Source: Deltaproteobacteria bacterium (GTDB lineage: Bacteria > Desulfobacterota > Dissulfuribacteria > Dissulfuribacterales > QOAL01). From it: a DNA stretch of 64,000 nt. The translations under genes were made by a program, and so were the position numbers. Below the pieces are notes generated by a model. It saw only the letters and a list, made by a program, of their open reading frames with translations, made no database searches and was not told the DNA's origin. Shown here piece by piece: positions 634-49,287 of this stretch. Location: positions 1,231 to 65,230 of the forward strand of contig JAJRZR010000063.1 of assembly GCA_024275145.1 (NCBI GenBank), given 5' to 3'. The stretch's first letter is position 1, and each line of letters begins with the position of its first letter.

Positions 634-676
634 CATGAAAATACAGTCCTGATGGAGGGTGCATTTTTACGGTAAA
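634..676 (+). repeat. REP-like hairpin repeat, copy S1 (nusG-rplK spacer)
   Basis: CATGAAAATACAGTCCTGATGGAGGGTGCATTTTTACGGTAAA; 21/24 identical to copy S5 over the first 24 nt and closely similar to S2; arms CCATGAAAAT/ATTTTTACGG pair with one mismatch. Confidence 0.7.
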
Positions 677-701
677 TATTTCGTAAGGAGAATTGTTCGA
701 T

Positions 702-1127
702 ATGGCGAAAAAAATTGCAGGTTTCATAAAGTTGCAGATCCCCGCTGGGCAGGCAAGCCCGTCTCCGCCAGTTGGGCCGGCGCTGGGGCAGCACGGCGTG
801 AATATAATGGAGTTTGTCAAGGCATTTAATGCCAAGACCGCGGATCAGCCCGGGATGATTATCCCGGTGGTCATAACCGTCTACGCGGATCGGTCTTTCA
901 GCTTTGTCTTAAAGACACCGCCAGCATCTGTGCTGCTTAAAAAGGCGGCTGGGATAGAAAAGGGGTCAGGTGTTCCAAACCTGGACAAGGTAGGCAAGGT
1001 CACCAGGGCCCAGGTGGAAGAGATAGCAAAGACCAAGATGCCTGACCTTACGGCCTCCACGATAGAAGCAGCCATGCGGACCATAGAGGGTACTGCACGG
1101 AGCATGGGAATAGAAGTAGTAGATTAG
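702..1127 (+). CDS. rplK: 50S ribosomal protein L11
   Basis: ORF 693-1127; canonical L11 N-terminus [38 protein letters not shown] begins at ATG 702. Confidence 0.95.
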
Positions 1128-1138
1128 AGGAGTTGTCC

Positions 1139-1843
1139 ATGGGACGCCACGGGAAAAAATATTTACAGGTAAAAGATAAGGTAGATACCAATAAACGTTA
1201 TTCATTGGACGAAGCAATTCGGACCGTTCTCAATACCCATTATGCCAATTTCGATGAAAGCGTTGACGTTGCCATAAATCTAGGTGTGGATCCTCGAAAG
1301 GCAGATCAGAACATAAGGGGATCAGTCGTCCTCCCCCATGGTACAGGCAAAAAATTAAGGGTACTTGTTTTCGCCAAGGGAGAAAAGGCCAAGGAAGCGG
1401 AAGAAGCCGGTGCTGATTTCGTTGGCGCTGAGGAGCTGGTCGAGAAGATCCAGAAGGGATGGCTCGATTTTGACAAGGTGGTTGTAACGCCGGATATGAT
1501 GGCTGTAGTGGGGCGCCTGGGACGGATACTGGGACCCAGGGGAATGATGCCAAACGCCAAGACTGGAACCGTGACCTTTGACGTGGCCAAGGCGGTTAAG
1601 GATATCAAGGCTGGCAAGGTAGATTTCAGGGTAGACATAGCAGGGGTGTTACATGCACCTATTGGCAGGGTGTCTTTCGGCCCTGAAAAGATAAAGGAGA
1701 ATTTTGCCGCCCTGGCAGATACGGTTCAGCGCCTGAAACCATCGACGAGCAAGGGCGCCTATGTGCGCGGCCTTGCGATGTCTACTACAATGGGTCCTGG
1801 TGTAAAACTGGATCCAGCCGAAGTAAAAAATATTGCGGCTTGA
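1139..1843 (+). CDS. rplA: 50S ribosomal protein L1
   Basis: ORF 1133-1843; L1-like sequence (GRHGKKY..., [23 protein letters not shown]); AGGAG lies 7 nt upstream of ATG 1139. Confidence 0.95.
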
Positions 1844-2493
1844 TGCCCTTGCAACTTCAGGGTGCCTGGCAGGTTGTTGACAGGTCGTACCTTCAATTGG
1901 AAAACACCGGCTCGTAGGGGACGTATCTGGGTGTGTCTGTACAGTGACTCGGCCGACGAGAAGGGGATGGGTCGTGAAAATTTCCAAGGGAAGGTGCAGG
2001 TCTTTACAGGGCTACCGCGTCGGCTTTGTCGCCGGGTGCTCGATCCAGGGGCTGCCTGCGTGTCCGTACAGACCAGTCGTCTTGGTCAGGAAAAGATCAA
2101 GCAATTAATCCATGTTACCTAGACCTTCATGCGCTCCATATCCTCGTGGCCGCACCTCGGGTATGGAAAAATGGCCCGGGGAAGGATGTGTTCTCACGAT
2201 AAACAAGAGATTCCCCAGAGTGGCCATATTTCTGTTTGGGGGGCACAAGACATCGATACGAAGAAATCGGCATCAAGGTGTGCAGGGTCTTCTTGAGGCG
2301 TAATTACCACGGCCATCAGGCAAAAAGGAATTGTCCCTATGGGGATTTAGATAAAAGGTTTGTCAAAGACAGTAGGTACTTCAAGGTGTTTAATGGATGT
2401 TTCGAAGAAAATGAAACCACCACCTACCGAGACACTTAGACCTCTGCCTTTGGCAGTAAATAAACTGCCTATGGTAGAAAGGGGGGATGAAAT
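1844..2493 (+). promoter_or_regulatory. Unusually long rplA-rplJ spacer; presumed rplJ promoter/leader (L10 autoregulatory region)
   Basis: 650 nt without a credible ORF between rplA stop and rplJ TTG start; the position corresponds to the L10 operon leader in other bacteria; no specific structure verified. Confidence 0.35.
1969..2010 (+). repeat. Partial REP-like repeat (5' half only), copy S13
   Basis: GGTCGTGAAAAT (1969-1980) is identical to the 12 nt GGTCGTGAAAAT at 47264-47275 (5' flank plus arm of copy S2); the 3' arm is poorly complementary. Confidence 0.35.
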
Positions 2494-3018
2494 TTGGCAT
2501 TGAAACGGAATGAAAAGGAGGCCATAGTTGAGGACCTTCACGGCAAATTTTCCAACGCAGTGAGTGTCATCATAGCCAGCTTTTCTGGCCTCAGCGTATC
2601 CGCGGCCAACAGCCTCAGGAAGGAATTGAGGGAAAAAGAGGGTGAATTCAAGGTCGCCAAGAATACCCTCTTGAAACGAGCGGTTCGTGGTACGACAGCA
2701 GAAATCCTTACAGATGAATTTGTAGGGCCCAATGCAGTGGTCATAAGCTATGATGATCCTGTCGCGGTGGCAAAGGTCTTGGTCAAATTTGCTGAGGAAA
2801 ACAAGGCCATTGAGATAAAGGCCGGTATGCTTGATGGGAAGTTCATGGATGCAGCAGGCATTGAGGCGCTCAGTAAACTGCCAAGTCGTGAGGTACTTCT
2901 GGCTCAACTACTCTCAGTACTTGTGGCAACACCTACCAATCTGGTCCAGGTGCTTGCAGGTATTCCCAGAAAACTGCTATATGCCCTTCGGGCAATAGAG
3001 GAAGCAAAGCAGCAATAG
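2494..3018 (+). CDS. rplJ: 50S ribosomal protein L10
   Basis: 174-aa ORF, TTG start after a G-rich SD; L10-like N-terminus [15 protein letters not shown]; followed by rplL. Confidence 0.93.
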
Positions 3019-3079
3019 ATTCAAGGACAAATATAAGTTTGGCCCCAAGGGCCCTTTAAGATTTCAGGAGGATGTAGAA

Positions 3080-3463
3080 ATGGCTGTAACCAAAGAAGAT
3101 GTTATTGAGTTCATATCCAACATGACAGTACTTGAGCTTTCGGAGCTCATAAAGGAAATGGAAGAAAAGTTTGGCGTAAGCGCGGCGGCTCCTGTGGCAG
3201 TTGCTGCTGCTCCTGGCGCGGAGGCAGGAGGTGCCGCTCCGGCTGAGGAGAAGACAGAGTTTGATGTCATACTCCAGGATATTGGCAGCCAGAAGATCAA
3301 GGTCATCAAGGAGGTAAGAGCAGTTACCGGTCTTGGCCTGAAAGAGGCCAAGGAACTGGTCGAGAGTGCGCCGAAGGCGATCAAGGAAGCGGTTTCCAAG
3401 GAGGAGGCGGAAAAGATCAAGGAGCAGGTCGAGGCCGTAGGCGCAAAGGTAGAGATCAAATAG
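3080..3463 (+). CDS. rplL: 50S ribosomal protein L7/L12
   Basis: 127-aa ORF; N-terminal dimerisation helix, Ala/Pro-rich hinge ([21 protein letters not shown]) and C-terminal [22 protein letters not shown] motif. Confidence 0.96.
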
Positions 3464-3516
3464 AAAAATCCTTCGGTGAAAGCCACAGGCTTTTTCTTCA
3501 TGTTTAGATCACCTTG

Positions 3517-3549
3517 ACCTGTACCAGGACATTATGTCCTGGTACAGGT
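3517..3549 (+). terminator. Perfect 14-bp hairpin between rplL and rpoB (probable attenuator/partial terminator)
   Basis: ACCTGTACCAGGAC-ATTAT-GTCCTGGTACAGGT followed by CTTTGCTG; the position matches the known rplL-rpoB attenuator of other bacteria; the T-tract is weak. Confidence 0.5.
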
Positions 3550-3608
3550 CTTTGCTGTAAGTTTCCTTTCTAAATACTCTCTCATCAGCCAGTTAGAGGC
3601 AGCACTAT

Positions 3609-7700: not shown

Positions 7701-7727
7701 TCGGCAATAGTCGGATATGGCAAGCCA

Positions 7728-7770
7728 TTTTACCATAAACATTCATCCTGCCCTGGGTCGTGTTTTCATG
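7728..7770 (-). repeat. REP-like hairpin repeat, copy S3 (rpoB-rpoC spacer, inverted orientation)
   Basis: Minus-strand sequence CATGAAAACACGACCCAGGGCAGGATGAATGTTTATGGTAAAA aligns along its length with S1/S2. Confidence 0.65.
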
Positions 7771-7934
7771 CACTTTGGGATGCGCCTTCAAGGTTGCGGA
7801 CCGCATGAAGGTTTGGGCTGAAGAAATAATTTTGACGAACGTGGACAATTTATAAACCTGTTGTGAGGGATGCATCGTGTTCGAAAAGTCATGGAAGGAT
7901 GCATCACCAACAGGCCTGAGAAGAGGTTTGCTCA

Positions 7935-12017: not shown

Positions 12018-12043
12018 ACAGGGAGCGATCCCAACTAGAGAGA

Positions 12044-21030: not shown

Positions 21031-21101
21031 GTTAGGTCTGAATCAGGTGCGTTTTTTCATACCTATATGGTTGCTTGCCCGAACATCCTGCCAGGCATGA
21101 A

Positions 21102-21169
21102 CCCGGATTATGCAGCTCGCAAGTTTGCCGAAGAATTTTATTTATTCAGCACTTGAAGTGCATAATTTG
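21102..21169. mobile_element. MITE-like element A (68 bp, two inverted termini only)
   Basis: Left end CCCGGATTATGCAGCTCGCAAGTTTGCC and right end (rc) CAAATTATGCACTTCAAGTGCTGAATAAATA match both ends of element B (41230-41482). The left end also matches the right terminus of the IS at 38407-40078. Confidence 0.7.
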
Positions 21170-21221
21170 CAGCTCTCCGGCGGTATTTTATCCTGGGCCA
21201 TACACCTCAGGTACCTGAGAA

Positions 21222-21437
21222 TTAGTGTTCCAGCTTGCCGCCCGCCAGATCCAGGGCCTTTTTCAGCCCTGCGTTCACCTGTTGAAGTGCGGAAAACGCC
21301 TCCAATATGGCGTCAGCCACCTGGGAGTTTCCCTCCTTCTTCATCTGTTCCGCCCATTCGGCGAATTCCTTGCCGTGTTCCTCGTTATGGGTTATCCAGT
21401 GAGGTATCAGTACCCTCAATTTTTCCACATCTGTCAC
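21222..21437 (-). CDS. Small helical His-rich protein of unknown function
   Basis: 71-aa ORF; HWITHNEEH motif; immediately downstream of the CooT-like gene on the same strand. Confidence 0.5.
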   Translation of the reverse strand: MTDVEKLRVLIPHWITHNEEHGKEFAEWAEQMKKEGNSQVADAILEAFSALQQVNAGLKKALDLAGGKLEH

Positions 21438-21538
21438 GTCTAAACACCTCTGATGGAAATTGATCGATTTCTAAAGGGCCCCTGGTGTTCGTATGCCATA
21501 GAGAATAGAAGCCATTTCTGCGTGTTTTTCAAGCTGTT

Positions 21539-21730
21539 TCATTCGATTGGTTCAAGAATAATCTTGTGTTTCAGAAGGTCTATAGTAACAATTTTTGCCG
21601 GTATTGTCTTCGGTTCTTCGAAAAAACCCTGTATCTTTACCCCCTCTGGGCATGGTTCCACAAGAATTGCGTCCCGTAGTATTTCTTCCTCGGAATTTCC
21701 CTTTTTCATATAAACAGTGGATTGACACAT
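21539..21730 (-). CDS. cooT: CooT-family nickel-binding protein
   Basis: ORF 21539-21763; from the internal Met the sequence is MCQSTVYMKKGNSEEEILRDAILVE...IVTIDLLKHKIILE, with the CooT pattern including Cys2. Confidence 0.7.
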   Translation of the reverse strand: MCQSTVYMKKGNSEEEILRDAILVEPCPEGVKIQGFFEEPKTIPAKIVTIDLLKHKIILEPIE

Positions 21731-21841
21731 TATAGGGCTCCTTAATAATTGAGCAGTTTGCATTGTCTGTAGGGGCTTGACTTGAAACCCTTTTTAATTA
21801 TAACTGATCCGGTAGCCTGATAGCGACCCCTTTTTAAATAA

Positions 21842-23131
<1,290 letters not shown>

Positions 23132-23280
23132 GGGATTTCTGGTGGGGAATCCCCACGTCCTTGTCCAATAGCCATGTCATGTGTTGGCAAAAGCCTTACA
23201 CGCCTGGCATGCCCCGGTTCTGCTTCCTTTGTGGCGGAGTGGGCGTTCAGGCTTAGGCCCCGTGTGGCTGTTCGGTATTT

Positions 23281-23874
23281 CTATCCATTGCCTCCTGGCC
23301 CGTAATCAAACAGGAGGAGTTGGGAGCGTTCATCCCCTTCATCCAGTTCGGCTATTTCCTTGAGCGTGGGCATGGAAGACAAATCGTCTAACTGAAATAT
23401 CTGTAGAAAGCGTCTGGTAGTGCGGTAGAGCAGGGGACGACCGGGGGTGTTTTTCCTGCCAGAGATCCTTATTAGCTTTTTCTCTAAAAGGAAACGAAGT
23501 GTGCCACTGGAATCCACTCCCCTTATTTCCTCTATTTCGGCCCTGGTGGTTGGCTGGCGATAGGCGATGAGTGCCAATGTCTCAAGTGATGCCTTGCTCA
23601 GCCTGAGTGGTGGTACCTTTTTGAATCTCAATATCCATTTCTTCAGGTCCCTTCGGGTTTGAAGGCGGTAGCCGCCAGCCACATTGACAAGCTCGATGCC
23701 ACGCGATTTCAAATCGTAATCCATGGCGAGTGCCTTCAAGGCCGTCTCTATTGCAGGTCTTTCGTGTTCGGGCAGATGCTTACACAGGGTAGATAGTGTG
23801 AGTGCCCCTCTAGCGGTAAAGAGTATCGCCTCTATGATTGCCTTGAGAGTCGGGGTATCACTATGGTTGGCCAT
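23281..23874 (-). CDS. scpB: Segregation and condensation protein B
   Basis: 197-aa ORF; two winged-helix repeats (IIEAILFTARGALTL..., LETLALIAYRQPTTRAEIEEIRGV). Confidence 0.88.
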   Translation of the reverse strand: MANHSDTPTLKAIIEAILFTARGALTLSTLCKHLPEHERPAIETALKALAMDYDLKSRGIELVNVAGGYRLQTRRDLKKWILRFKKVPPLRLSKASLETLALIAYRQPTTRAEIEEIRGVDSSGTLRFLLEKKLIRISGRKNTPGRPLLYRTTRRFLQIFQLDDLSSMPTLKEIAELDEGDERSQLLLFDYGPGGNG

Positions 23875-26450: not shown

Positions 26451-26574
26451 AGAGTTTTTTCCCTTTTAAACTAGAGATGATCGGCGCAGATTTCCATGAG
26501 TGCCCTGTTCGTTCCGTGTATCTTACTATACGTTCATCCCTGGCTGGGGTAGCGTTTGTGCAAGTATCCCTTGA

Positions 26575-26613
26575 CATGAAAATACGGCCCTGATGGAAGA
26601 TATTTTTTTCAGG
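26575..26613 (+). repeat. REP-like hairpin repeat, copy S5
   Basis: CATGAAAATACGGCCCTGATGGAAGATATTTTTTTCAGG; 21/24 identity to S1 over the 5' part. Confidence 0.65.
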
Positions 26614-27828: not shown

Positions 27829-27872
27829 CCCTTGAAAATTTCCTGTAGTGCCCGGTAGCCCTGGGTTTCACG
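27829..27872 (+). repeat. REP-like hairpin repeat, copy S10 (divergent loop)
   Basis: CCCTTGAAAATTTCCTGTAGTGCCCGGTAGCCCTGGGTTTCACGG; arms CCTTGAAA/TTTCACGG pair 7/8, with the same mismatch position as S1. Confidence 0.5.
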
Positions 27873-28086
27873 GCGAGAAACGCCTGTATGTGTGCATATT
27901 GCACTTTTTCACTTTCTACCGTTGCCTTTGAACAAGGTGATAATTTTCCAAAGGGCCTTGACTGTTATCCTGAAGATATATTCCTCTTACCGGGCGTGTT
28001 TTTGCACCCAGGGGCTACAACAGATGCGCGTGCTGCCTCAAGGTTTATTACAGCGAAGGCCGATCATCCCAACCTGCCCAGGGAGG

Positions 28087-29667: not shown

Positions 29668-29788
29668 CGTATACGTTCAATCCTTTCTGAGAATTTTGGC
29701 TAAATTACTGTGAAATGCACCCTTCGTCAGGGCGTATCCTTCTGCCCATGGCTGCTGGAACAAAGGTATACAGTCTGCATGGGCGTTT

Positions 29789-29834
29789 GCGTAAAAACAC
29801 ACTCCCCGCATGGGGCAGGGCTATGTTTTCAAGC
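29789..29834 (+). repeat. REP-like hairpin repeat, copy S11
   Basis: GCGTAAAAACACACTCCCCGCATGGGGCAGGGCTATGTTTTCAAGC; outer AAAACA/TGTTTT and inner CCCC/GGGG stems; closest to S3. Confidence 0.6.
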
Positions 29835-30998
29835 CGCGGTGCTGGATATACGGTTCGCATGAATATTTGCAAAATATTCCTGGGCCGCTGCGACCCCCTT
29901 ACCTAGTGTGACCGGGTGCCCAAGTTCTTTAAGTGCCCTTTCCACTGCCGCCAAGGCGATTATCATATCCCACTGGCACAAATGCCCCATATGTGAAATG
30001 CGGAAAATTTTGCCCTTGGCCTGGGCCTGGCCACCTGCGATGGTGATACCATAATCCTCTCTGAGGATCTTTACTACATCCTGGCCATTTATGCCATCCG
30101 GTGCCTTTATGACGGTTATGGCCTCGCTTGGGGCCTTTGCAAAGAGTTCCAAACCTAAGGCCCTTACGCCGGCCTTGGTAGCCTCGGACAGGGTCTTGTG
30201 GTGTTCAAAGAGCGCGCTTAGCCCGGTTTCCCTTATGTCCTTGAGCACTACGCTGAGACCCGTAATGAGCGAAACCGCCGGGGTAAATGCAGTGGTCTGG
30301 CGTTCTATTGCCTTTTTTTCCTTCAAGAAGTTGAAGTAATACCTGGAAGAGCCTGTCCTTTGGGCCATTTGCCATGCCTTTTCACTGACGCTTACAAGGG
30401 CAAGCCCTGGTGGCAGGGCCAGGGACTTTTGCGAGCCGGTTATCACTATGTCCAGGTTCCACTCGTCCGTTTTTATATCGTACACGCCGAGGGCGCTGAT
30501 TGCATCCACTGCCAGAACGGTTTCCCGCCTGTCTTTTACTATCCTACCAAGCTCTTCCACCGGATGCTTTACACCTGTAGAGGTTTCATGGGCCTGGACC
30601 AGTACGGCCTTTGCATCGGGGTTGCGTTCGAGAGCCTCCTCGACACTTTTGGGCTTTACGGCTTCCCCCCATGGCACGTCGATATTTACAGGTTCGACTC
30701 CATAGGCCTCGCAGAGTTCAGCCCAGCGTTCGCCGAACTTTCCTCCCCGGATTACAATAGCCTTATCGCCTGGGGAAAGTATATTGGCTACCGTTGCCTC
30801 CATACCCCCTGTACCCGAAGATGCCAGGATGAGAACGTCATTTTTTGTCTGGTACAGATATTTCAGGTCTTCCCTCACTTGGGTCAAAAGCGCAGAAAAC
30901 TGCGGAGACCGATGGTGTATCAGGGGCTCGGCCATCTTTGCCAGTACATGGGGGGCCACGGCTACAGGCCCTGGGGCCATCAAGTATCGCTTTTTCAT
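29829..30998 (-). CDS. Class-V aminotransferase (serine-pyruvate/alanine-glyoxylate family; possible phosphoserine aminotransferase)
   Basis: 389-aa ORF; MAPGPV N-terminus, SGTGGMEA, TGSQKSLALPPG (PLP lysine); immediately upstream of serA on the same strand. Confidence 0.8.
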   Translation of the reverse strand: MKKRYLMAPGPVAVAPHVLAKMAEPLIHHRSPQFSALLTQVREDLKYLYQTKNDVLILASSGTGGMEATVANILSPGDKAIVIRGGKFGERWAELCEAYGVEPVNIDVPWGEAVKPKSVEEALERNPDAKAVLVQAHETSTGVKHPVEELGRIVKDRRETVLAVDAISALGVYDIKTDEWNLDIVITGSQKSLALPPGLALVSVSEKAWQMAQRTGSSRYYFNFLKEKKAIERQTTAFTPAVSLITGLSVVLKDIRETGLSALFEHHKTLSEATKAGVRALGLELFAKAPSEAITVIKAPDGINGQDVVKILREDYGITIAGGQAQAKGKIFRISHMGHLCQWDMIIALAAVERALKELGHPVTLGKGVAAAQEYFANIHANRISSTAA

Positions 30999-31017: not shown

Positions 31018-31118
31018 GTCTGAAAATATAGGTCCAAATCTTCTGCAGCCCGTATCCTTGAGGCCGCGCCCCCGGGCGTGAAGATATGGCCCGAGGCCGG
31101 GTGTGTTTTAAGGTAAAA
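31018..31118 (+). repeat. Composite/degenerate REP-like repeat, copy S7
   Basis: 5' arm CTGAAAATATAGGTCC (31018-), a second 5'-arm-like CGTGAAGATA (31076-) and a shared 3' arm GTGTTTTAAGGTAAAAG (~31102-31118). Confidence 0.45.
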
Positions 31119-31201
31119 GAGGTAATCGTCTTTTCAGGACCTCTGTCATAATTATGGTCACATGACTGCGAATTGGACTTTTGCCCCTTTAGGTCCTCTT
31201 G

Positions 31202-36892: not shown

Positions 36893-36956
36893 GAAGCGGC
36901 TATAGCAGAAAAATTTGATATTTCAATTCATATCATTTTGTTAAAGAATCTGTCAA

Positions 36957-36982
36957 GAAACAGGGGACAGGCGAAGTATTCA
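36957..36982 (+). repeat. Direct repeat R1 flanking the Y1-transposase unit (hairpin-forming)
   Basis: GAAACAGGGGACAGGCGAAGTATTCA, 22/26 identical to R2 at 38267-38292; embedded in a hairpin GAAAC(A)GGG...CCCGTTTC. Confidence 0.6.
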
Positions 36983-37341: not shown

Positions 37342-37787
37342 ATGGCACGCATACCTAGGATGATAATTACAGAAAAATTTACAGTTATCACATTATGTCA
37401 AGGACGGCTCTGGATGGCTACGTTATAAAAGCCATAGAGAAGGATTATCTGCTAGACCTCATCAAGCGCCTGAGTACAGTCTATTTCGTGGAGGTCTTGG
37501 GCTTTTGTATTATGGGGAATCATTTTCATCTTATGGCTCGAATGTACCCAGGAGACTGTTACGATGATGACGAGGTGATGAGGCGTTTTTGTCGATATTA
37601 TGGTGTCGATGGTGATAAGTATCTGGAAGATGGTAGAATCCGGTTCTTTCGTGAGGAATGGTCTAATCTCTCCGAATATGTCCGTGAGATAAAACAGACC
37701 TTTTCCCGTTTTTACAATAAGAGGCATGATCCCAAGTCGTATACTCAAGTGTTGGGAGAAGGGAATTATGGTAGCCAACTGGAGTAG
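37342..37787 (+). pseudogene. Y1 (HUH) transposase, IS200-like/REP-associated type, frameshifted and 3'-truncated
   Basis: ATG 37342 gives MARIPRMIITEKF. A 1-nt frame change near 37378-37383 joins it to YSYHIMSRTALDG...FCIMGNHFHLMAR (HUH motif)...FSRFYNKRH. The conserved C-terminal half (catalytic Tyr region) is missing. Confidence 0.65.
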
Positions 37788-38157: not shown

Positions 38158-38266
38158 CTGTGGAGTTTTTGCCGATTGTCGCTCCTGGGTCTGAAACGTG
38201 CTATGGGATGATTTTTGAGATGCTTGATCCTGGCCAAGTTCGGGAAATTTTTTAATTCCTTTACAG

Positions 38267-38292
38267 GAAACGGGGGATAGGCGAATTGTTCA
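38267..38292 (+). repeat. Direct repeat R2 flanking the Y1-transposase unit
   Basis: GAAACGGGGGATAGGCGAATTGTTCA; same orientation as R1; can pair GGAAAC...GTTCC. Confidence 0.6.
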
Positions 38293-40338: not shown

Positions 40339-40349
40339 TTGGTTTCCTT

Positions 40350-40426
40350 TGGCCCGCCCAGCGCGACTCGAACACGCAACCTGCGGATTAGAAGTCCGCT
40401 GCTCTATCCAGTTGAGCTATGGGCGG
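40350..40426 (-). tRNA. tRNA-Arg (anticodon TCT)
   Basis: 77 nt: acceptor CCGCCCA/TGGGCGG (unusual C1-G72), D arm GCTC-AACTGGATA-GAGC, anticodon stem GCGGA/TCCGC with loop CTTCTAA, T arm GCGTG-TTCGAGT-CGCGC, encoded CCA. Confidence 0.88.
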
Positions 40427-40578
40427 AAAAATCTAGATTTGTATAATCTGTACCTGGTTACTTGTAAAGTTTTGAATCCCTCTGCGTAACAGAAATTTTG
40501 ACGTGAAAATGCCCCCTGCATCAGGGCCGGTTTTCATGTAACGGGTGCGTGGTGGAAGTGCAGGCCGCATGAAGGCAT

Positions 40579-41229
40579 TTAGGCCCTGAGGCCCTCGAGC
40601 GCCTCTGTCAGCTTGTTGACCTTGATGCGGAGTTCCTCCATGCTGCCGTTGTTGTCTATCGTATAATCAGCGGCCTTGGCCTTTTCTTCCTGGGGAAGTT
40701 GTGCAGCAAGCCATTTTTTAGCCAATGGGCGCGGTATCCCGCGCCTGTCTATGAGCCTCTTTAGCCTGAATTCGTCCGGGGCGGTCACGCATATGACAAA
40801 ATCTAAGAGGTCCTGCCAACCGGTCTCGAAGAGAAGGGGCACCTCTACCACAATAAGCCCGTGGCCGCGCTCGGCAAGCCGGCCTATCATGTGGCGAAGT
40901 CCCCGGAGTACATGGGGATGTATTATTTCTTCAAGCCGCTTCTTCGCACGGGCATCCGAAAGGATCCGTTTAAGGAGGCGCCTCCGGTCTATGCGGCCGT
41001 TGGCCCCCATGATCCCTGGTCCAAACTCTGCCTTTACCTTTTCAAAGGCGGGCTCTCCAGGCTCAAGGGCCTGCCTTGCGATCTCATCCGTGTCCCGAAC
41101 AATGAATCCCTTTTCCCTGAGTATGCGTCCCACTGTTGTCTTGCCCGACCCTATGCCTCCGGTCAGGGCTACTATCTTGGCAGGATACAGGGAGGAGAGC
41201 CGTCTTCGATTCATGAAAGAGCCTTTCAT
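40579..41229 (-). CDS. coaE: Dephospho-CoA kinase
   Basis: 216-aa ORF; P-loop LTGGIGSGKTT; the real start is possibly the internal Met at 41214. Confidence 0.9.
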   Translation of the reverse strand: MKGSFMNRRRLSSLYPAKIVALTGGIGSGKTTVGRILREKGFIVRDTDEIARQALEPGEPAFEKVKAEFGPGIMGANGRIDRRRLLKRILSDARAKKRLEEIIHPHVLRGLRHMIGRLAERGHGLIVVEVPLLFETGWQDLLDFVICVTAPDEFRLKRLIDRRGIPRPLAKKWLAAQLPQEEKAKAADYTIDNNGSMEELRIKVNKLTEALEGLRA

Positions 41230-41482
41230 CCCGGATTATGCACTTCAAATGATGAATAAATAGAACTGTGTTAAAAATTACAAGATGTTACAAGCAAATC
41301 AGCATCCACTTAGGTTCACCCAAAGGGTGCATCAACTTCTAAACGAAATCATCCAATATTTGAAGCCACAAGGGGTGCGTAATTTTGACGAATTTACTGC
41401 GTTGTCGGGCACTTGGTACACAAGTAGGTCTTACGTGTCCTCCGCTTGCATCTTTGGCAAACTTGCGGGCTGCATAATCCGG
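41230..41482. mobile_element. MITE-like element B (253 bp)
   Basis: Ends CCCGGATTATGCACTTCAAATGATGAATAAATA and (rc) CCGGATTATGCAGCCCGCAAGTTTGCC match both ends of element A in inverted relative orientation; begins immediately next to the annotated coaE start. Confidence 0.7.
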
Positions 41483-41820
41483 ATTCATGGTATTCGGTTA
41501 CAGGGCTGTATCCGCTGTATGGGGATGCCTTCTACACTGGTTGCGCATTTTTTAATATTTTACCATAAATATTGATGGATTGGGCAAGAAATGCCGGATA
41601 GGATGGGAAATGCCGGCTTCGGTATGCGCGCTCTCCCGTTGGATCGACAGGTTGTCCAGGGGAAGGAAAGAAGGATCGTAGTGGATACTGCCTTGGGCTC
41701 TTTAAGATATTACTACCGTGAAGACACATCTGGTCCTGGACTGCTAAGCATGAAAGTTTGGCTGGTATTTTTAGATAAAAATGGATATTGTTAGTGACCC
41801 CGTGGAAGTTGTATATTTGA

Positions 41821-41857
41821 CGTGAAGATACATCTGTCCTTGGGCCGTATCTTCGTG
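41821..41857 (+). repeat. REP-like hairpin repeat, copy S8 (11-bp stem)
   Basis: CGTGAAGATAC-ATCTGTCCTTGGGCC-GTATCTTCGTG; an unpaired 5'-half copy (CGTGAAGACACATCTGGTCCTGG) lies at 41717-41739. Confidence 0.7.
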
Positions 41858-41965
41858 CCCGGCAGGGCGGCAGGCAGGAGATCTGCCCCGGATGTCCATG
41901 CCAGGAAACACACGGTCCATGGTCCGTGTGAGGATTTCATGTAAAGGATCTTTGGAGGCAATAAC

Positions 41966-42445: not shown

Positions 42446-42571
42446 GCCTGCTGAAGGATGGACCCGGCGGGTCCTGATCTCGATCGTTTGCCATGGGAAT
42501 AGAATTTCCATATAGGGTATTTTCGTGTCCGGGCGTGGCATTGAAGGTGTGGGCCACATGGGAAGCCCGGC

Positions 42572-44116
42572 GTGAAGGTACGTTTTGGGCCTTGGCTGTT
42601 TTTCCAGGCCCGTGGGTGTCTGCCCAAACAGCCGGTCAGGCATGAAGGTTTGTTGAACGATAAAGGAATTATTTCTACTGTTGAAAGGCATATATCCGAA
42701 AAGGGTCTGATCCTTCCCGGAGACCGTATCGTGGTTGCCGTTTCAGGCGGCCCTGATTCGGTATGTCTTCTCCATGTCTTGCATCTCCTAAGCAGCCAGT
42801 GGGATCTTGATCTAAAGGTCGCGCATTTTGAACACGGATTAAGGGGGCAGGAATCCCTGGACGATATGAGGTTCGTAGAGGGGCTGGCCAGGGATTACGG
42901 CCTGGAATTTTTTAAAGATCATGCAGATGTAAGGGGTTATTCCTTGGCCAAGGGGATCTGCCTGCAGGAGGCGGCAAGGCTCCTCAGGTACCGGTTCCTG
43001 GAGCGCGTTCTGGATGACTCCGGGGCCGCTCTCATAGCCACGGCCCACACGGCAAGCGATCAGGCGGAAGAGGTGCTCCTGCGTCTCCTGCGTGGTGCCG
43101 GCCTTCCTGGGCTTAGCGGCATTCCATGGAAACGGGGGGCGATCGTAAGGCCGCTTCTGGGGGTTACCAGGGATGAGGTCATGGGGCACGTGGCGTCATT
43201 CGGTTTGCGTTACCGGCTGGATAGCTCCAACGATAATCCCAAGTACATGAGGAACCGTGTGCGTAAGGAGCTGGTTCCCTTCCTGGAAGAACGCTTCAAT
43301 CCAAATATAGTTGGCACCATAAATCGGACGGCTGCGTTGCTGGCCGAGGAACAAGAGATTCTGGATGGCATGGCCGCGGAGGCCTACCGTCACTGCCTTG
43401 ACGATATCTCTACGACCAGTGGACAGGTGGCATTGAACCTGGACAGGCTTGCTGCCTGCCTTCCTGTGACAAGACGCAGGGTGTATCGCAGGGCTATCGA
43501 GGAGCTGGGGATGTTCGGCGGGGACATCGGTTATCGCCACCTCGACGCCCTTGATCACCTGGTTGTCCAGCCCGTGCCAGGCAAGCGTTGTATACTGCCA
43601 AGGGGGGTGTCGGCCTACCGGGACTATCATCACCTTGTTATTTCTTCCACGCCCTTCGAGGCCGGCCCAGGGGACGAAGCTGGGAGATCGACGCTGATAA
43701 CCGGCGCAGGTTCCTGGAAAATCCCGTGGATGGATGCACAGTTGGATATTATACCCCTTTCGTCACAGGCTCCCTTATCTGGACAGGGATCATCAGGTTA
43801 TCCAAGGAGGCTTTTTATCGCTCGTGACTCGGCGAGATTCCCGCTGATCCTCAGGAGGCGCAGGCCTGGTGACAGGTTCTTGCCTTTTGGCGCCAAGGTT
43901 TCGATGAGATTAAAGAGATTCATGATCAACAGGAAGATCCCGAGGGATCTAAGAAACAGGCTACCTGTAATCGAAAGGGATGGCCAGATATTGGTGCTGG
44001 CAGGTGTGGAGGTATCCGAGGCGTGCAGGATCAGGCCTGGCCGGTATGGCAGCGCATATTGCCTGGAACTGAAAGGCTTCCCATGGCGCGGTGGCGGGCG
44101 TGCAAATGGGCATTGA
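42572..44116 (+). CDS. tilS: tRNA(Ile)-lysidine synthase
   Basis: ORF of 514 aa (true start probably downstream); PP-loop VAVSGGPDSVCLLHVL, AHTASDQAEEVLLRLLRG. Confidence 0.9.
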   Translation: MKVRFGPWLFFQARGCLPKQPVRHEGLLNDKGIISTVERHISEKGLILPGDRIVVAVSGGPDSVCLLHVLHLLSSQWDLDLKVAHFEHGLRGQESLDDMRFVEGLARDYGLEFFKDHADVRGYSLAKGICLQEAARLLRYRFLERVLDDSGAALIATAHTASDQAEEVLLRLLRGAGLPGLSGIPWKRGAIVRPLLGVTRDEVMGHVASFGLRYRLDSSNDNPKYMRNRVRKELVPFLEERFNPNIVGTINRTAALLAEEQEILDGMAAEAYRHCLDDISTTSGQVALNLDRLAACLPVTRRRVYRRAIEELGMFGGDIGYRHLDALDHLVVQPVPGKRCILPRGVSAYRDYHHLVISSTPFEAGPGDEAGRSTLITGAGSWKIPWMDAQLDIIPLSSQAPLSGQGSSGYPRRLFIARDSARFPLILRRRRPGDRFLPFGAKVSMRLKRFMINRKIPRDLRNRLPVIERDGQILVLAGVEVSEACRIRPGRYGSAYCLELKGFPWRGGGRANGH

Positions 44117-44145
44117 TGGGCGGTTTGATCCTTATTTTAATAGAT

Positions 44146-44161
44146 ATTTATTGCAATAAAT
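44146..44161. promoter_or_regulatory. Perfect 16-bp palindrome ATTTATTGCAATAAAT upstream of ftsH (candidate operator)
   Basis: Exact dyad read directly from the sequence, ~220 nt upstream of the ftsH TTG start; no known regulator assigned. Confidence 0.3.
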
Positions 44162-44382
44162 GCATAAGATCGGTTTAATATAATTGAATGCTTTCTTAAG
44201 CTGAATTCTTGGCCGGGATAGTCGTTTTTTTGTCAAAGGTGCTACCATGCCTGCCGTGTCGTTTGCACAGGCTTTGCCCGGCTTGGAGATGCGCTCTCTG
44301 CAGGGCACGTTTTTATCTGAAATTCAATAGAATAGAGGTGTTTGTCGGCGCTGGCACCTTGAGTTCTTTTTGGAGGAATACT

Positions 44383-46218
44383 TTGAACACGTTTTATAAA
44401 AACTTGAGTCTTTGGCTTGTAATCGGGCTTGTCATGGTCTTTCTGTTCAACCTTTTCAACAAGCCCAAGGACAATATCCGGGAGATCCCCTATAGCGAGT
44501 TTATCTCCTACGTGGAAAAGGGACAGGTAAGTAAGGTCGTGATCCAGAAGGACAAGATAAAGGGGGTTTTTTCCAACGAGTCCCCGTTTCGGACGGTTGC
44601 GCCGGCCCAGGACCCTGATCTCGTAAAGGAACTCAAGAAAAAGGGTGTCACCATACAGGTCAAGCCGGTGGAGGAGACCCCATGGTACCTGACGTTACTG
44701 ATCTCTTGGTTCCCCATGTTGTTGCTCATCGGGGTATGGATCTTCTTCATGCGCCAGATGCAGGGCGGCGGTGGCCGTGCAATGTCCTTTGGCAGGAGCA
44801 GGGCAAAGCTTCTCAATAGCCAGAACATAAAGGTGACGTTCCAGGACGTGGCAGGTGTTGAGGAGGCCAAGGAAGAGCTGGAAGAGATAATTGATTTCCT
44901 GAAGGACCCCAAGCGCTTCACACGCCTTGGCGGCAGGATACCCAAGGGTGTGCTGCTGGTGGGGCCTCCGGGGACGGGTAAAACGCTTCTTGCAAAGGCC
45001 ATTGCAGGTGAGGCCGGGGTTCCCTTTTTCAGCATAAGCGGTTCCGACTTCGTAGAGATGTTTGTTGGTGTAGGCGCATCCAGGGTCAGGGACCTGTTCG
45101 TCCAGGCCAAGAAACACGCACCGTGCATCATCTTTATTGGCGAGATAGACGCCGTGGGAAGGCACCGCGGGGCAGGTCTTGGCGGTGGACACGACGAAAG
45201 GGAACAGACGCTCAACCAGCTCCTTGTAGAAATGGACGGTTTCGAGACGTCAAGCGGTGTCATCGTCGTCTCCGCCACGAACAGGCCTGATGTGCTTGAT
45301 CCCGCCCTGCTGCGGCCCGGGCGTTTCGACAGGCAGGTGACTGTTCCGGTTCCAGACCTCAACGGCCGTGAGAAGATCCTCAAGGTACATACCAAGAAGA
45401 CCCCCCTTGCCGACGATGTCGACCTTTCCCTCATCGCCAGGGGAACTCCGGGCTTTTCAGGGGCTGACATCGAGAACCTGGTGAACGAGGCTGCCCTTAT
45501 CGCTGCAAGGGAAAACAAGGACAAGGTGGGCATGGAGGACTTTGAAAAGGCGAAGGACAAGGTCCTCATGGGCGCTGAACGCAAGAGCATGATCCTTTCG
45601 GATGAGGAAAAGCGGATAACGGCATTCCACGAGGCAGGTCACACCCTTGCAGCCAAGTTACTGCCGGGGGCCGATCCGATTCACAAGGTCACTATCATCC
45701 CCAGGGGCAGGGCCCTTGGACTTACCCAACAACTGCCGCAGGATGAAAGACACACCTATCCCAAGTCCTACCTGTTGAATAACCTGGTGATCCTGCTGGG
45801 TGGAAGGGTGGCCGAGGAGCTCACCTTCAACGAGTTGACCACAGGGGCAGGAAATGACATAGAGCGTGCCTCCGGCCTGGCCAGAAAGATGGTTTGTGAA
45901 TGGGGCATGAGTGATGAACTCGGGCCGGTGGCATTTGCCAAGCAGGACAACGAGGTCTTCCTGGGCAGGGATTTTGGCCATGTCAAGGAGTACAGCGAGG
46001 CTACTGCCCAGAAGATCGATGAAGAGGTGGAAAGGATCGTTCGAAGGGCATATGAAAGGACGAAGGGGCTTCTTCAGGAGAATATAGAGTGTCTCAATGC
46101 GATTGCAGAGGCCTTGCTGGATAGGGAGTCGCTGGGTGCCCAGGATATTGAAGAATTAATGGATGGGTGTCGAAAAGTAGACCAGACAAAGGCGGAAGGC
46201 AACGAGGCAACCGCATGA
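44383..46218 (+). CDS. ftsH: ATP-dependent zinc metalloprotease FtsH
   Basis: ORF 44209-46218; GGAGG 6 nt before TTG 44383 gives the canonical N-terminus ([16 protein letters not shown]); Walker [17 protein letters not shown] zinc motif. Confidence 0.97.
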
Positions 46219-46291
46219 GCCGTTTATGTGACAGCCTGGGGCGTCTTGACCGTTTCGGCTACAAGAATCTGTCGGGGCCTGCCAGACCAAG

Positions 46292-47134
46292 ATGAGACTT
46301 AGAGGCCGGGATTTTGTCTGGGGCAGGCGTACCTACCTCATGGGGGTAGTGAATGTAACCCCTGATTCCTTCTCCGATGGCGGTGATGCATATTCCCCGG
46401 ATTCCGCTCTGGAAAAGGCATTATCCCTTGTTGAGGCGGGGGCCGACATATTGGATATCGGCGGTGAATCCAGCCGGCCCTTTTCAGAGCCTGTTGGCGC
46501 GGAAGAGGAACTCAGACGGGTGATCCCTGCCATCCGTATTATACGTAAGTCCTGCGATTGCCCTGTCTCCATCGATACAACCAAGGCCCGGGTCGCCAAG
46601 GCAGCCATAGACGAAGGGGCAGATCTCGTCAACGATATAAGCGCCATGCGTTTCGATCCTGAGATGGCCCCGTTTATAGCAAGCTCTGGGGTGTCTGTTG
46701 TGCTCATGCACATGGAAGGCACGCCCAAGGACATGCAAAGGGGCCCATGGTATGAGGATGTAGTCAAGGAGATCAAGGAGTTTCTTGCCGAGAGGATCTC
46801 CTTCGCACAGGAAGCCGGGATCGCAAGGGATAAGATCATCATCGATCCTGGTATAGGCTTTGGCAAACGGTTGGAAGACAATCTTTCTATTATCAAGAAG
46901 TTGCACTGTTTCGCAGATCTTGGTTATCCGATTCTAGTCGGGCCTTCAAGGAAGGCATTTCTGGGCTCGGTTACCGGGATAGAGGAGCCGAAGCAGAGGG
47001 ACGTGGCAACGCTTGGGGCCGTGGCTGTATGTGTTGCGAATGGTGCCGATATCATACGGGTCCATGATGTCAACATGACAAGGCAGGTGACAGTGGTGGC
47101 GGATGCTATTTGCAGGCGGCACAACTTACCATGA
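46292..47134 (+). CDS. folP: Dihydropteroate synthase
   Basis: 280-aa ORF; MGVVNVTPDSFSDGG, DIGGESSRP, NDISA, GFGK motifs. Confidence 0.95.
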   Translation: MRLRGRDFVWGRRTYLMGVVNVTPDSFSDGGDAYSPDSALEKALSLVEAGADILDIGGESSRPFSEPVGAEEELRRVIPAIRIIRKSCDCPVSIDTTKARVAKAAIDEGADLVNDISAMRFDPEMAPFIASSGVSVVLMHMEGTPKDMQRGPWYEDVVKEIKEFLAERISFAQEAGIARDKIIIDPGIGFGKRLEDNLSIIKKLHCFADLGYPILVGPSRKAFLGSVTGIEEPKQRDVATLGAVAVCVANGADIIRVHDVNMTRQVTVVADAICRRHNLP

Positions 47135-47266
47135 AGATACACCCTGGCCTTGGACAGGTTTTATGTCCTGGGGTGCGGCTTCATGCGCGGGCTACCTGAA
47201 GGCCTTTTAGCAGTTTCCGGGTAGACCTTCATGTGGCCTACAATCGCGGGCACCGTGTCCCAAGGT

Positions 47267-47310
47267 CGTGAAAATACAGCCCCGATGGGGGTGAATTTTC
47301 ACGGTAAAAA
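47267..47310 (+). repeat. REP-like hairpin repeat, copy S2 (perfect 9-bp outer stem)
   Basis: CGTGAAAAT-ACAG-CCCC-GAT-GGGG-GTGA-ATTTTCACG-GTAAAAA. Confidence 0.75.
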
Positions 47311-47399
47311 CCTGGAAGACCACCTACCGATCGTGCATCCAGTGGATGGCAGCAGCGGTGTATTTTCCCACTAATAAATTTAGCGTGGGCACAAATTCA

Positions 47400-47425
47400 C
47401 CGTGAGAATCCGTCCTTTCTCACGG
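47400..47425 (+). repeat. Compact REP-like hairpin, copy S14
   Basis: CCGTGAGA-ATCCGTCCTT-TCTCACGG; same CGTGA...TCACG arms and GTCCT loop motif as the family. Confidence 0.55.
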
Positions 47426-47487
47426 CTGCATTTCCATGCCTGGCGGGGTATGGCGCCAGATTGTGGACCGCCTGAAGGTTTGATTAG

Positions 47488-48288
47488 ATGATAGTGCAGA
47501 CCCTTGAACAATATTTGCCTCTTATACGGTGGCAAGACGTAGTAGACATCCTAGTGGTGGCCTACATTATTTACCGGGTTGTTTTGCTGGTGCGGGGCAC
47601 AAGGGCTGTACATATGGCCGCTGGCCTGGCGGTCATAATACTTGTTTATTTCATTGCCAGATATCTTGAGCTTTATACCCTCCATTGGCTACTGGGCACC
47701 GTACTTAGTTCCCTCTTCTTGCTCATCATTATCGTCTTTCAGGATGACATAAGAAGGGTGCTTACCCAGATGGGCCAGCCTCCTTTCCTCAAGTACAGGG
47801 TAAAGACCTTTCAGGCCCTGGAAGAGATAGCAAAGGCGGCCAGCACCCTTTCCCAGTCCAAGACCGGCGCATTGATAGTCCTTGAAAGGGATGTAGGTCT
47901 TGGAGACTATCTCGAAACCGGAGTAGGTATCCATGCCAGCGTTACGCAGATGCTGTTGTGCACTATATTCGCCAAGTGTACGCCGCTCCATGATGGTGCA
48001 GTAATCATCCAGAAGGGCAGGCTTACCGCGGCAGGTGTCGTGCTTCCACTGAGCACGAATCCCAATATCAGCAAGAGGCTTGGGACCAGGCACCGGGCCG
48101 GTATCGGGATCACCGAGCAAACCGATGCGGTCTCGGTGATAGTTTCCGAGGAGACCGGTACCATTTCTGTCGCAATAGCCGGGCGTATTACCAGGGATCT
48201 GGACCCGGGAACACTGCGAAGGATTCTGCACAACACCTTTGCCACCGAGGAATCAGAGAAGCGCTGGTGGCGCAGGAGGATTGCCTGA
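47488..48288 (+). CDS. cdaA: Diadenylate cyclase CdaA (membrane-bound DAC)
   Basis: 266-aa ORF; three N-terminal TM helices; DAC motifs GALIVLERD, TPLHDGAVII, LGTRHRAGIGITE. Confidence 0.93.
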   Translation: MIVQTLEQYLPLIRWQDVVDILVVAYIIYRVVLLVRGTRAVHMAAGLAVIILVYFIARYLELYTLHWLLGTVLSSLFLLIIIVFQDDIRRVLTQMGQPPFLKYRVKTFQALEEIAKAASTLSQSKTGALIVLERDVGLGDYLETGVGIHASVTQMLLCTIFAKCTPLHDGAVIIQKGRLTAAGVVLPLSTNPNISKRLGTRHRAGIGITEQTDAVSVIVSEETGTISVAIAGRITRDLDPGTLRRILHNTFATEESEKRWWRRRIA

Positions 48289-48291
48289 TCT

Positions 48292-49212
48292 ATGGCCTGG
48301 CGGGATTTTTTCTTGAAAAATTGGGTCCTAAAACTTATTTCCATTTGCTTCGCGGTGATACTGTGGTTCTTCGTGGTGGGAGAGGAGAAGGCGGAGATAG
48401 GTATCCAGGTGCCTATAGAGATCGTCAATCTGCCCCATGACCTGGTTATTTCGAACGATATACCCTCGGTCATAGATGTGAGGGTGTATGGACCACGCAG
48501 CATGATAAGGCTGATGACCAATCAGGGGGTCTCTAAGGTCATCGATCTCAGCGGGGCCAGCGCCGGAACCATAACGGTACACATAACACCGGACAGCCTT
48601 CCCCTGCCAGGAGGTGTACGGGCAATGAGGATCCAGCCCAGCAAGTTCGACATCGTGCTCGAGCCCTTTGTGCGTAAGGTGTTGCGAGTGCAGCCCGTGT
48701 TGACAGGGGCAGTGGCCAGGGACTACGAGGTTTCCGGGGTGAGCGTTTCCCCCTCCGCGGTTGAGCTTGGAGGACCAGCTAGCGAGATGCGAAGACTCAG
48801 GGAGATAAAGACCCTTCCAATAGAATTGAATGGTGAGAAGAAGGGCTTTACTAGGGAGGTGGGGCTTGATCTTCAAGGCCTGCACGTTACAGTGGAAGAT
48901 GCAGTAAGGGTGAGGGTGCACGTGGGCATCTCACCCCAGAAGGGGGTTCGACGCATCAACCATGTCCCTGTACAACTCGAGGCGACACAGACCGGCATAT
49001 CTTGGTGGCCAAAGGAGGTCAGCGTTGTCCTGGCAGGTGAAAAACCGAGCTTGAACAGGCTCCGGGTGGAAGATATAAAGGTTGTCTTGTCTATAAATGG
49101 GGTCAAACAGGGTACGCACTACCTGAGGCCGGATTTTCTGGTGCCACCCGGCCTAAGGGTGATGAAGGTAATACCCCAGAAAATTAAGGTAGTTGTGCCC
49201 AAACCTTCGTAG
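48292..49212 (+). CDS. cdaR: CdaR (YbbR-domain regulator of CdaA)
   Basis: 306-aa ORF; N-terminal TM (KLISICFAVILWFFV) and repeated YbbR-like beta modules; 3 nt after cdaA. Confidence 0.85.
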   Translation: MAWRDFFLKNWVLKLISICFAVILWFFVVGEEKAEIGIQVPIEIVNLPHDLVISNDIPSVIDVRVYGPRSMIRLMTNQGVSKVIDLSGASAGTITVHITPDSLPLPGGVRAMRIQPSKFDIVLEPFVRKVLRVQPVLTGAVARDYEVSGVSVSPSAVELGGPASEMRRLREIKTLPIELNGEKKGFTREVGLDLQGLHVTVEDAVRVRVHVGISPQKGVRRINHVPVQLEATQTGISWWPKEVSVVLAGEKPSLNRLRVEDIKVVLSINGVKQGTHYLRPDFLVPPGLRVMKVIPQKIKVVVPKPS

Positions 49213-49246
49213 TCCTTCATTGGGCCGGTCTCGTTGACTTGGCGTT

Positions 49247-49287
49247 CGCTTAAAATACGTGTCCTGCCCTTGGGCTGTATTTGCGTG
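49247..49287 (+). repeat. REP-like hairpin repeat, copy S6 (cdaR-glmM spacer)
   Basis: CGCTTAAAATAC-GTGTCCTGCCCTTGGGCT-GTATTTGCGTG; the loop resembles the S8 loop (TGTCCT..TTGGGC). Confidence 0.55.

Follow-up and report, generated by a model that had tools for sequence, protein, structure and literature searches.

A repeat in the spacers of a Desulfobacterota contig

A 64-kb stretch of contig JAJRZR010000063.1 (assembly GCA_024275145.1; G+C content of the contig 52%), which derives from an uncultured bacterium of the Desulfobacterota, was analyzed and is referred to as the window. The genes identified in the window include nusG-rplKAJL-rpoBC, iorA, serA, an aminotransferase gene, coaE, tilS, ftsH, folP, cdaA, glmM, and ftsZ. 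The spacers between them carry a repeat of 85–95 nt, here named family A, which is very probably a DNA repeat that is dispersed and prone to turnover, as opposed to an RNA or a regulatory site. The window was compared with ∼51 kb (loci L001, L004, and L099) of the closest genome in a species-representative collection, 'Deltaproteobacteria bacterium S143_34' (WFZW01, GCA_015489365.1), whose NusG is 99% and whose DNA is ∼86% identical to that of the window, and which is called the sister species. The wider comparison covered the nusG-rpoC loci of 78 related species, 966 kb in total; the next relatives are metagenome-assembled genomes (MAGs) named as Thermodesulfobacteriota or 'Deltaproteobacteria', including a Seep-SRB2 MAG, with NusG identities of 75–84%.

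A preliminary description of the window had listed ten copies of a 25–45 nt hairpin, labeled between S1 and S14, and two partial copies, P1 and P2. The 5′ motif CGTGAAAATAC, allowing up to two mismatches, occurs 32 times in the window versus 11.6 ± 3.4 times in shuffled sequence. When 120 nt were printed from each listed site, the similarity ran well past the hairpin, with a central TTTTCATGCC, an GGGGTGCGGC block, and a distal GCATGAAGGTTT common to several copies. Iterated nhmmer searches converged on 15 loci in the window, 14 of them full or near-full copies and one restricted to the hairpin. A covariance model run with filters off returned 13 matches with E values from 1.5e-11 to 1.2e-21, plus the hairpin-only copy at 5e-4; at 29786–29874 it gave only a partial, lower-scoring match, whereas nhmmer spans that copy in full. 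Most of the 15 sequences went into model building; the nhmmer seed held nine, and the others were recovered independently.

The motif count, nhmmer, and the covariance model thus place a recurrent family, far above chance, at most of the coordinates first listed. Eight of the ten listed copies are members (S1, S2, S3, S5, S7, S8, S11, and S14), while S10 (27829–27872) and the partial P1 (1969–2010) gave no match in the covariance-model scan, and S6 (49247–49287) and the partial P2 (41717–41739) were not significant there (E ∼2.7–2.9). Alignments give an element of 85–95 nt, of which the hairpin proposed as the unit is the 5′ module. S7, described as a composite, is one single family A element. 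S1, S2, and S7 lie on the minus strand and S3 and S11 on the plus strand, orientations that had been mis-assigned because the hairpin is nearly palindromic; the 'GGTAAA' reported 3′ of the hairpin corresponds to the 5′ TTTACC foot read on the opposite strand. Seven copies had been overlooked (2115–2206, 27961–28052, 29701–29794, 40494–40584, 42484–42562, 42563–42657, and 47122–47211). That these sites are merely A/T-rich palindromic spacers that look alike by chance has practically no probability of being correct: the arms are indeed A/T-rich and four of the twelve listed sites fall below significance, but E values descend to 1e-21 over 85–94 aligned positions that include G+C-rich parts, and non-orthologous copies in the sister species fit the same model.

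Copies and their flanking genes

The midpoints of 14 of the 15 copies are intergenic, in a window of which 13.7% is intergenic, and the fifteenth copy sits on the last codons of an open reading frame (ORF). Family A accounts for ∼14% of the intergenic DNA. Ten copies are on the plus strand and five on the minus strand, in no constant orientation relative to the flanking genes. GC skew across the window tracks gene orientation, and no replication direction can be read from it. Clusters occur at 29.7–31.1 kb, 40.5–42.7 kb, and 47.1–47.5 kb. At the local density of about one copy per 4–6 kb, extrapolation gives a genome-wide total of several hundred copies.

Three copies lie in the nusG-rpoC region. 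The first (S1, 586–679, minus strand; 74.6 bits and E 1.2e-21 in the covariance model, also found by nhmmer) takes up the nusG-rplK spacer in antisense orientation to the genes and has an orthologous copy in the sister species. The second (2115–2206, minus strand; 70.5 bits, E 2.6e-20) lies in an enlarged rplA-rplJ spacer upstream of a conserved block resembling an L10 leader, and its counterpart in the sister species has the opposite orientation. The third (S3, 7726–7820, plus strand; 69.2 bits, E 6.7e-20, also supported by alignment) is in the rpoB-rpoC spacer. Two other features of this region were noted. The leader-like block, 2345–2463, is a weak L10-leader match (21 bits versus a gathering score of 44) located exactly where the alignment to the sister species resumes upstream of rplJ, and the repeat insertions in this spacer lie upstream of it. 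Between rplL and rpoB, a perfect 17+17-nt palindrome (GACCTGTACCAGGACAT/ATGTCCTGGTACAGGTC) at 3516–3550 may be an rplL-rpoB attenuator or processing hairpin.

Further along, S5 (26568–26613, minus strand) is a partial copy that retains only the hairpin module (20.6 bits, E 5e-4, model positions 9–53; nhmmer E 4e-8), and in the sister species the same spacer contains a full copy (L099 12810–12892). A plus-strand copy at 27961–28052 (55.8 bits, E 1.7e-15) lies 34 nt past the serA stop codon. The head-to-tail pair at 29.7 kb consists of an upstream member at 29701–29794 (plus strand; 55.1 bits, E 2.7e-15) and S11 at 29786–29874 (plus strand; nhmmer E 6.9e-9, model positions 2–85; included in the alignment), which runs with its 3′ part into the end of the aminotransferase ORF. 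A spacer alignment shows that ∼130 nt covering the upstream member and the hairpin of S11 are absent from the sister species, which keeps a loop-less version of S11. S7 (31030–31121, minus strand; 65.7 bits, E 9.3e-19) has a decayed ortholog with an internal deletion in the sister species.

Downstream, a copy at 40494–40584 (plus strand; 59.3 bits, E 1.2e-16) lies between a tRNA-Arg gene and the coaE stop codon, which falls in the 3′ end of an element. S8 (41813–41910, plus strand; 51.7 bits, E 3.6e-14; matched by nhmmer over model positions 1–57 only) is a variant whose 5′ hairpin module is canonical and whose 3′ part is longer and divergent. A second head-to-tail pair, at 42.5 kb upstream of tilS, is formed by copies at 42484–42562 (plus strand; 43.7 bits, E 1.5e-11) and 42563–42657 (plus strand; 55.8 bits, E 1.6e-15), the latter stopping ∼13 nt before the likely tilS start, as placed from the 481-aa gene call of the sister species.

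The folP-cdaA spacer holds a tail-to-tail pair and a third copy. The first of the pair (47122–47211, plus strand; 54.7 bits, E 3.6e-15) supplies the folP stop codon from its 5′ arm, and a different element, of family B described below, occupies its site in the sister species. Its partner, S2 (47217–47311, minus strand; 70 bits, E 3.7e-20), has the best-preserved hairpin, with folding z-scores of −4.2 as RNA and −2.5 as DNA, and is absent from the sister species. The third, S14 (47393–47487, plus strand; 71.5 bits, E 1.2e-20), ends at the cdaA start codon; its sister ortholog has decayed past detection by the hidden Markov model (HMM). Adjacent to it, between decaying repeats, a ∼60-nt block upstream of cdaA (CCTGGAAGACCACCTACCGATCGTGCATCCAGTGGATGGCAGC..., 47312–47375) retains ∼88% identity to the sister species, compared to ∼55% for its surroundings; it has no Rfam match and may be a regulatory element for cdaA.

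Several regulatory roles for the repeat itself were considered. A shared regulon or transcription-factor site was ruled out, as the neighbors are housekeeping genes of unrelated function (nusG/rplK, rpoBC, serA, tilS, folP/cdaA, and coaE) and the spacing of the arms varies. Aligned copies inspected by eye for promoters of sigma-70 (−35/−10 layout) or sigma-54 type had spacings and boxes that do not fit. A Shine-Dalgarno role for the 3′ GAAGG was likewise discarded: the sequence upstream of cdaA in the sister species has no GAAGG, and other copies lie far from start codons. Separately, a block upstream of ftsH (44140–44200) is near-identical in the sister species, contains TTGCAA...TAATAT, and has the look of a normal sigma-70-type promoter.

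Anatomy of the element

On its own strand, the element consists of a TTTAC foot, a 5′ arm CCGTGAAAATAC, a loop of ∼20 nt, a 3′ arm GTATTTTCATGCC, a region with a second small hairpin, and a 3′-terminal GCATGAAGGTTT. The consensus reads tTTaCC(G/A)TGAAaAtAC, a loop with CC..GG, GTaTTTTCAtGcC, c.GGGGTGCGGC, 12–20 nt, and GGaCCGCATGAAGGtTT(g/a); alignments of the copies give the foot as TTT[A/G]C(C). The first and second arms are mutually complementary, and the second hairpin is possible in the GGGGTGCGGC...GC region, between GTGCGGC-like and GC(C/T)GCAT-like segments. The terminal GCATGAAGGTTT is a direct repeat of the 5′ arm and can therefore also pair with the central arm, an alternative that is used in some minimum-free-energy folds. 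There is no T-run 3′ of the hairpin on either strand, and for this reason the element is not an intrinsic terminator.

The ends of the element bear on whether it could be a classical MITE, or miniature inverted-repeat transposable element, that is, an insertion sequence that has lost internal parts and is mobilized by a DDE transposase through terminal inverted repeats. A size of ∼90 nt, intergenic sites, lineage specificity, and turnover are typical of MITEs (for reviews, PMC3184786 and PMC10969869). Set against this likeness, the first 20 nt match the reverse complement of the last 20 nt at a mean of 7.2 positions versus 7.5 in shuffled sequence, so that terminal inverted repeats are lacking and the ends are direct repeats instead. 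No flanking target duplications are visible in 12 copies, the copies being old, and the TTT[A/G] present at both element boundaries is part of the consensus. A MITE origin is thus improbable.

Lineage restriction, insertion, and turnover

Among the nusG-rpoC loci of the 78 species, family A matches besides those of the window were found in the sister species only. The nusG-rplK spacer measures 137 nt in the window and 136 nt in the sister species versus 2–40 nt in most other species, the rplA-rplJ spacer 650 and 436 nt versus a typical ∼170 nt, and the rpoB-rpoC spacer 234 nt in the window versus 17–95 nt in most relatives. Since these spacers exceed those of most other species, the copies are insertions in the lineage of the window and the sister species. 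Family A arose by insertion within one genus-level lineage of uncultured Desulfobacterota, a lineage of sulfate reducers.

Copies then differ in presence between the two species and decay without pairing constraint. Sequence found only in the window includes 29701–29794 and 47217–47311, and copies found only in the sister species lie at L004 3726–3812 (tilS-ftsH) and at L099 5412–5496, 16321–16393, and 18126–18206. By inspection of the alignments, orthologous copies (S1, S14, and S7) are ∼55–60% identical versus 85–90% for their flanks. The hairpin tip of some copies has been lost in one species (S11), and S5 is full-length in the sister species and partial in the window. A further difference between the two genomes concerns the enolase region, where window 21048–23304 and L099 16265–18644 give no BLASTN alignment between flanks that are 83–87% identical; allele replacement or horizontal exchange may account for this mismatch.

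Alignment of the sister-species spacers uncovered a second repeat of ∼120 nt, family B, with seven copies in the ∼51 kb of that genome (L099 5497–5622, 12894–13012, 16394–16514, and 20096–20206; L004 6919–7042; L001 4450–4568 and 8971–9033) and none in the window. Family B opens with the foot and 5′ arm known from family A (TTTTATCTGAGAATGC) and also contains its 3′ arm (GCATTTTCATAC), but its loop measures ∼85 nt and its tail differs. In four cases it lies directly 5′ of a family A element, abutting its foot, to give composites of ∼215 nt. The repertoires of the two species thus differ (A in the window, A and B in the sister species), yet they are built on one arm pair. Because the differing repertoires share these arms, the pattern suggests that the functional unit of recognition is the arm with its foot, and that insertion takes place beside copies already present. 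Such a shared-arm, adjacent-insertion pattern would be the expected product of a hairpin-specific, site-preferring enzyme.

A repeat without a dedicated transposase could alternatively have spread passively, by recombination, duplication, or gene conversion, and been retained by the host as a protein-binding or termination site, roles that have been put forward for some REP and BIME sequences. The clustering of copies agrees with this, as do the sites that carry different variants in the two species, possibly through conversion or deletion between neighbors, and the loop-deleted versions in the sister species, which resemble palindrome excision. Insertions into distant, unrelated spacers such as nusG-rplK nevertheless require a dispersal mechanism, the rapid decay of orthologs speaks against a conserved host function, and the lack of a T-run excludes intrinsic termination. 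Passive spread or host recruitment is accordingly considered unlikely, though it deserves more weight than a MITE origin.

Pairing and folding of the hairpin

The preliminary description had held that differences in the stem are compensated. In an alignment of 18 sequences, 81.6% of stem cells form standard pairs, compared to 81.0 ± 1.0% when the 3′ partners were shuffled among copies (173 of 500 shuffles were as high), and the covariation score of 0.263 compares to 0.269 after shuffling. When the partner columns were slid, pairing fell to 35–51%. The hairpin consensus is a true palindrome, and individual changes in it are uncompensated. Duplex energies, which need no alignment, lead to the same result, with own arms at −9.5 kcal/mol pairing no better than arms taken from different copies (−9.8 kcal/mol); for the second hairpin only a weak trend toward own-arm pairing was seen (390 of 5000 permutations). 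The claimed compensation consequently does not hold, and its two G-C examples fail individually. The change reported for S8 (GAAGATAC/GTATCTTC) occurs in two copies, at a position where five copies have no standard pair and three have G-U, and the strong hairpin of S14 pairs its 5′ arm with a non-homologous segment of the loop, not with the homologous 3′ arm. There is no selection on hairpin pairing.

These tests speak for the most part against a family of structured RNAs, whether small RNA genes or cis-regulatory or processing hairpins, that would be maintained for their fold. Some sites do fold well (S2, S11, S14, and S6, with z-scores of −2.6 to −4.5), many copies lie in operon spacers near start or stop codons, and the consensus permits two mutually exclusive pairings of the central arm. 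Half of the copies, however, fold no better than shuffled sequence, whole elements do so only slightly better (z-scores of +0.25 to −2.5), and RNAalifold found no consensus structure in a MAFFT alignment. Rfam gave no match, either at gathering thresholds over the whole window or in permissive scans of two element-rich regions. Family A moreover occurs in both orientations relative to flanking genes, its orthologs decay faster than their flanks, and it is absent from 77 related species. An RNA family is hence very improbable.

A decayed Y1 transposase gene

The window contains the remnant of a Y1 transposase gene at 37342–37787, in which an ORF at 37395–37787 scores 24.3 bits against the Pfam Y1_Tnp model (cut-off 23). 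A frameshift after the MARIPR N-terminus and a truncation before the catalytic tyrosine make it a pseudogene. Family A is absent between 31.1 kb and 40.5 kb, which leaves ∼6 kb upstream and ∼3 kb downstream of the pseudogene without a copy, and the remnant is missing from all sister-species loci read. A search for homologues found 156, at ≤67% identity and mostly on short contigs. The A/T-rich island around the pseudogene has 29-nt direct repeats at its borders (36954–36982 and 38264–38292), which are 83% identical; the first of these contains GGGGACAG, a flank motif quoted for TIRYT-type Y1 genes (PMC6006769).

Discussion

The preliminary description had proposed a mobile or recombinogenic DNA repeat of the repetitive extragenic palindrome (REP) or bacterial interspersed mosaic element (BIME) type in preference to a cis-regulatory RNA. 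This proposal is supported by the intergenic placement, the occurrence in both orientations, the lack of covariation and of an Rfam match, the restriction to one lineage, and the gains and losses between sister species. As a whole, and with the mechanism outlined below included, the best explanation is a lineage-specific family of non-coding mosaic repeats of 85–95 nt, a conclusion that we regard as probable at a moderate level of confidence. We see in family A an ordinary repeat, selfish or neutral, of a kind that is not known to have been described. Among the small interspersed repeats of bacteria it is regarded as a new variant, because it lacks the defining features of canonical REPs (foot motif), REPINs (complementary ends), and MITEs (terminal inverted repeats).

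The nearest comparisons are with the REPs and BIMEs of Enterobacteria and Pseudomonas (PMC3337134, PMC6006769), which like family A are extragenic, abundant, lineage-specific, imperfect palindromes with a short foot motif. BIMEs also share with it the two orientations and the clusters of alternating inverted arms with distinct linkers (arm, loop, inverted arm, linker, arm; here B-A composites and A-A tandems). This resemblance to BIMEs is one of layout, not homology. In canonical REPs the hairpin has GT[AG]G at its foot (PMC6006769), whereas the foot of family A is TTTAC, its stem is A/T-rich instead of G+C-rich, its repeated arm is not itself a palindrome, and it has an additional 3′ module that ends in a direct copy of the 5′ arm. 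It also differs in its host, an uncultured Desulfobacterota lineage, and in that no flanked Y1 gene (REPtron) was found in the sequence read.

Similar remarks apply to REPINs and their REP-associated tyrosine transposases (RAYTs). An 89-bp REPIN (PMC3337134) is of the same size and likewise a hairpin of two inverted conserved arms around a less conserved spacer; family B corresponds to the same arms with a much longer spacer, and S5 to a decaying, 'singlet'-like remnant. A REPIN has complementary ends and folds as one whole-element hairpin (PMC3337134), in contrast to family A, whose ends are not complementary and whose arms have no palindromic core, and no RAYT was identified in the sequence read, the Y1 remnant of the window scoring below the cut-off for REP transposases.

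Palindrome-associated, non-autonomous elements of the IS200/IS605 type agree with family A in having no terminal inverted repeats, no visible target duplication, unlike ends, hairpins in a subterminal position, and a left junction marked by a short conserved motif, and head-to-tail pairs such as those of family A are expected from the insertion of such elements next to a fixed motif. IS608 inserts 3′ of TTAC; its left-end and right-end hairpins are near-identical, and its motif lies ∼19 nt from the stem. Unlike in IS608, the foot motif of family A abuts the stem, and no full-length parent insertion sequence was found in the sequence read. The BOX, ERIC, RUP, and Correia families have complementary termini or terminal inverted repeats, which family A lacks. 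In common with them (for reviews, PMC2229807 and PMC3184786), it is a non-coding spacer repeat of ∼100 nt that may overlap gene ends and has modular variants.

With REP/REPIN systems, and the atypical REP-like hairpins lacking GT[AG]G that are known for some TnpA-Y1 subclasses, as precedent (PMC3337134, PMC6006769), the foot and hairpin of family A would be the recognition site of a trans-acting enzyme that copies or moves the element as single-stranded DNA. By analogy, this enzyme might be an HUH/Y1 single-strand DNA transposase of RAYT or IS200/IS605 type, which offers the best precedent but is put forward only tentatively. Insertion would be favored next to the same short TTT[A/G]C-like motif, generating arrays of alternating arms as in BIMEs, and the effects on neighbors, such as supplied stop codons and the separation of operon genes, would be by-products. 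A bolder and somewhat less likely idea is that families A and B could be the substrates of an unrecognised hairpin-specific single-strand DNA transposition system in Desulfobacterota, distinguished by an A/T-rich stem, a TTTAC foot in place of the GT[AG]G of REPs, and insertion by its own arm motif, which would build up arrays of alternating arms.

A number of observations weigh against this account. No transposase is linked to the element, and the only Y1 gene of the window is a pseudogene without an adjoining copy. On the NCBIfam model for REP-associated tyrosine transposases (NF047646, cut-off 80), the remnant reaches 23.3 bits and the intact homologues 62–66 bits, and five loci of such homologues in other organisms (L006, L007, L100, L101–L103, and L104) contain neither family A nor family B. 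The two hairpins of one family A element are unlike each other, contrary to the left-end/right-end pair of IS200/IS605 elements. In five spacers no clean pair of empty and filled sites could be aligned, the spacers having diverged too far to give exact ends, target, or duplication, and no young, near-identical copies are among those seen. A 37-bit, three-anchor pattern scan of a metagenome collection returned 13 loci, roughly as many as chance would give, and none of them matches the HMM. The link between the repeat and the decayed Y1 gene that had been suggested on the basis of the window is thus not upheld, given the lack of a flanking copy, the scores below cut-off, the five homologue loci without an element, and a foot that is not GT[AG]G. 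Some TnpA-Y1 subclasses are without any REPs (PMC6006769).

No major concept is changed by family A. For annotation, its ∼14% share of the intergenic DNA in the window is repeat and not regulatory sequence, stop codons are supplied and ORF calls extended by it, and core-operon spacers are enlarged (nusG-rplK, rplA-rplJ, rpoB-rpoC, and folP-cdaA). For repeat biology, it adds a well-defined mosaic repeat of REP/BIME-like character from beyond the Proteobacteria, one to which the canonical definitions of REP, REPIN, and MITE do not apply. A literature search surfaced no description of a REP/RAYT-like system in this phylum and sequence type, and we know of none. If a dedicated transposition system does exist, REP/RAYT-like biology would be extended to a new phylum and sequence type. 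The differing repertoires of the two sister species (A only versus A and B) provide a natural system for finding the enzyme that recognizes the arms. In metagenomics, repeats of this kind break assemblies, and they can be used to mark this lineage, a group associated with seeps and hydrothermal settings.

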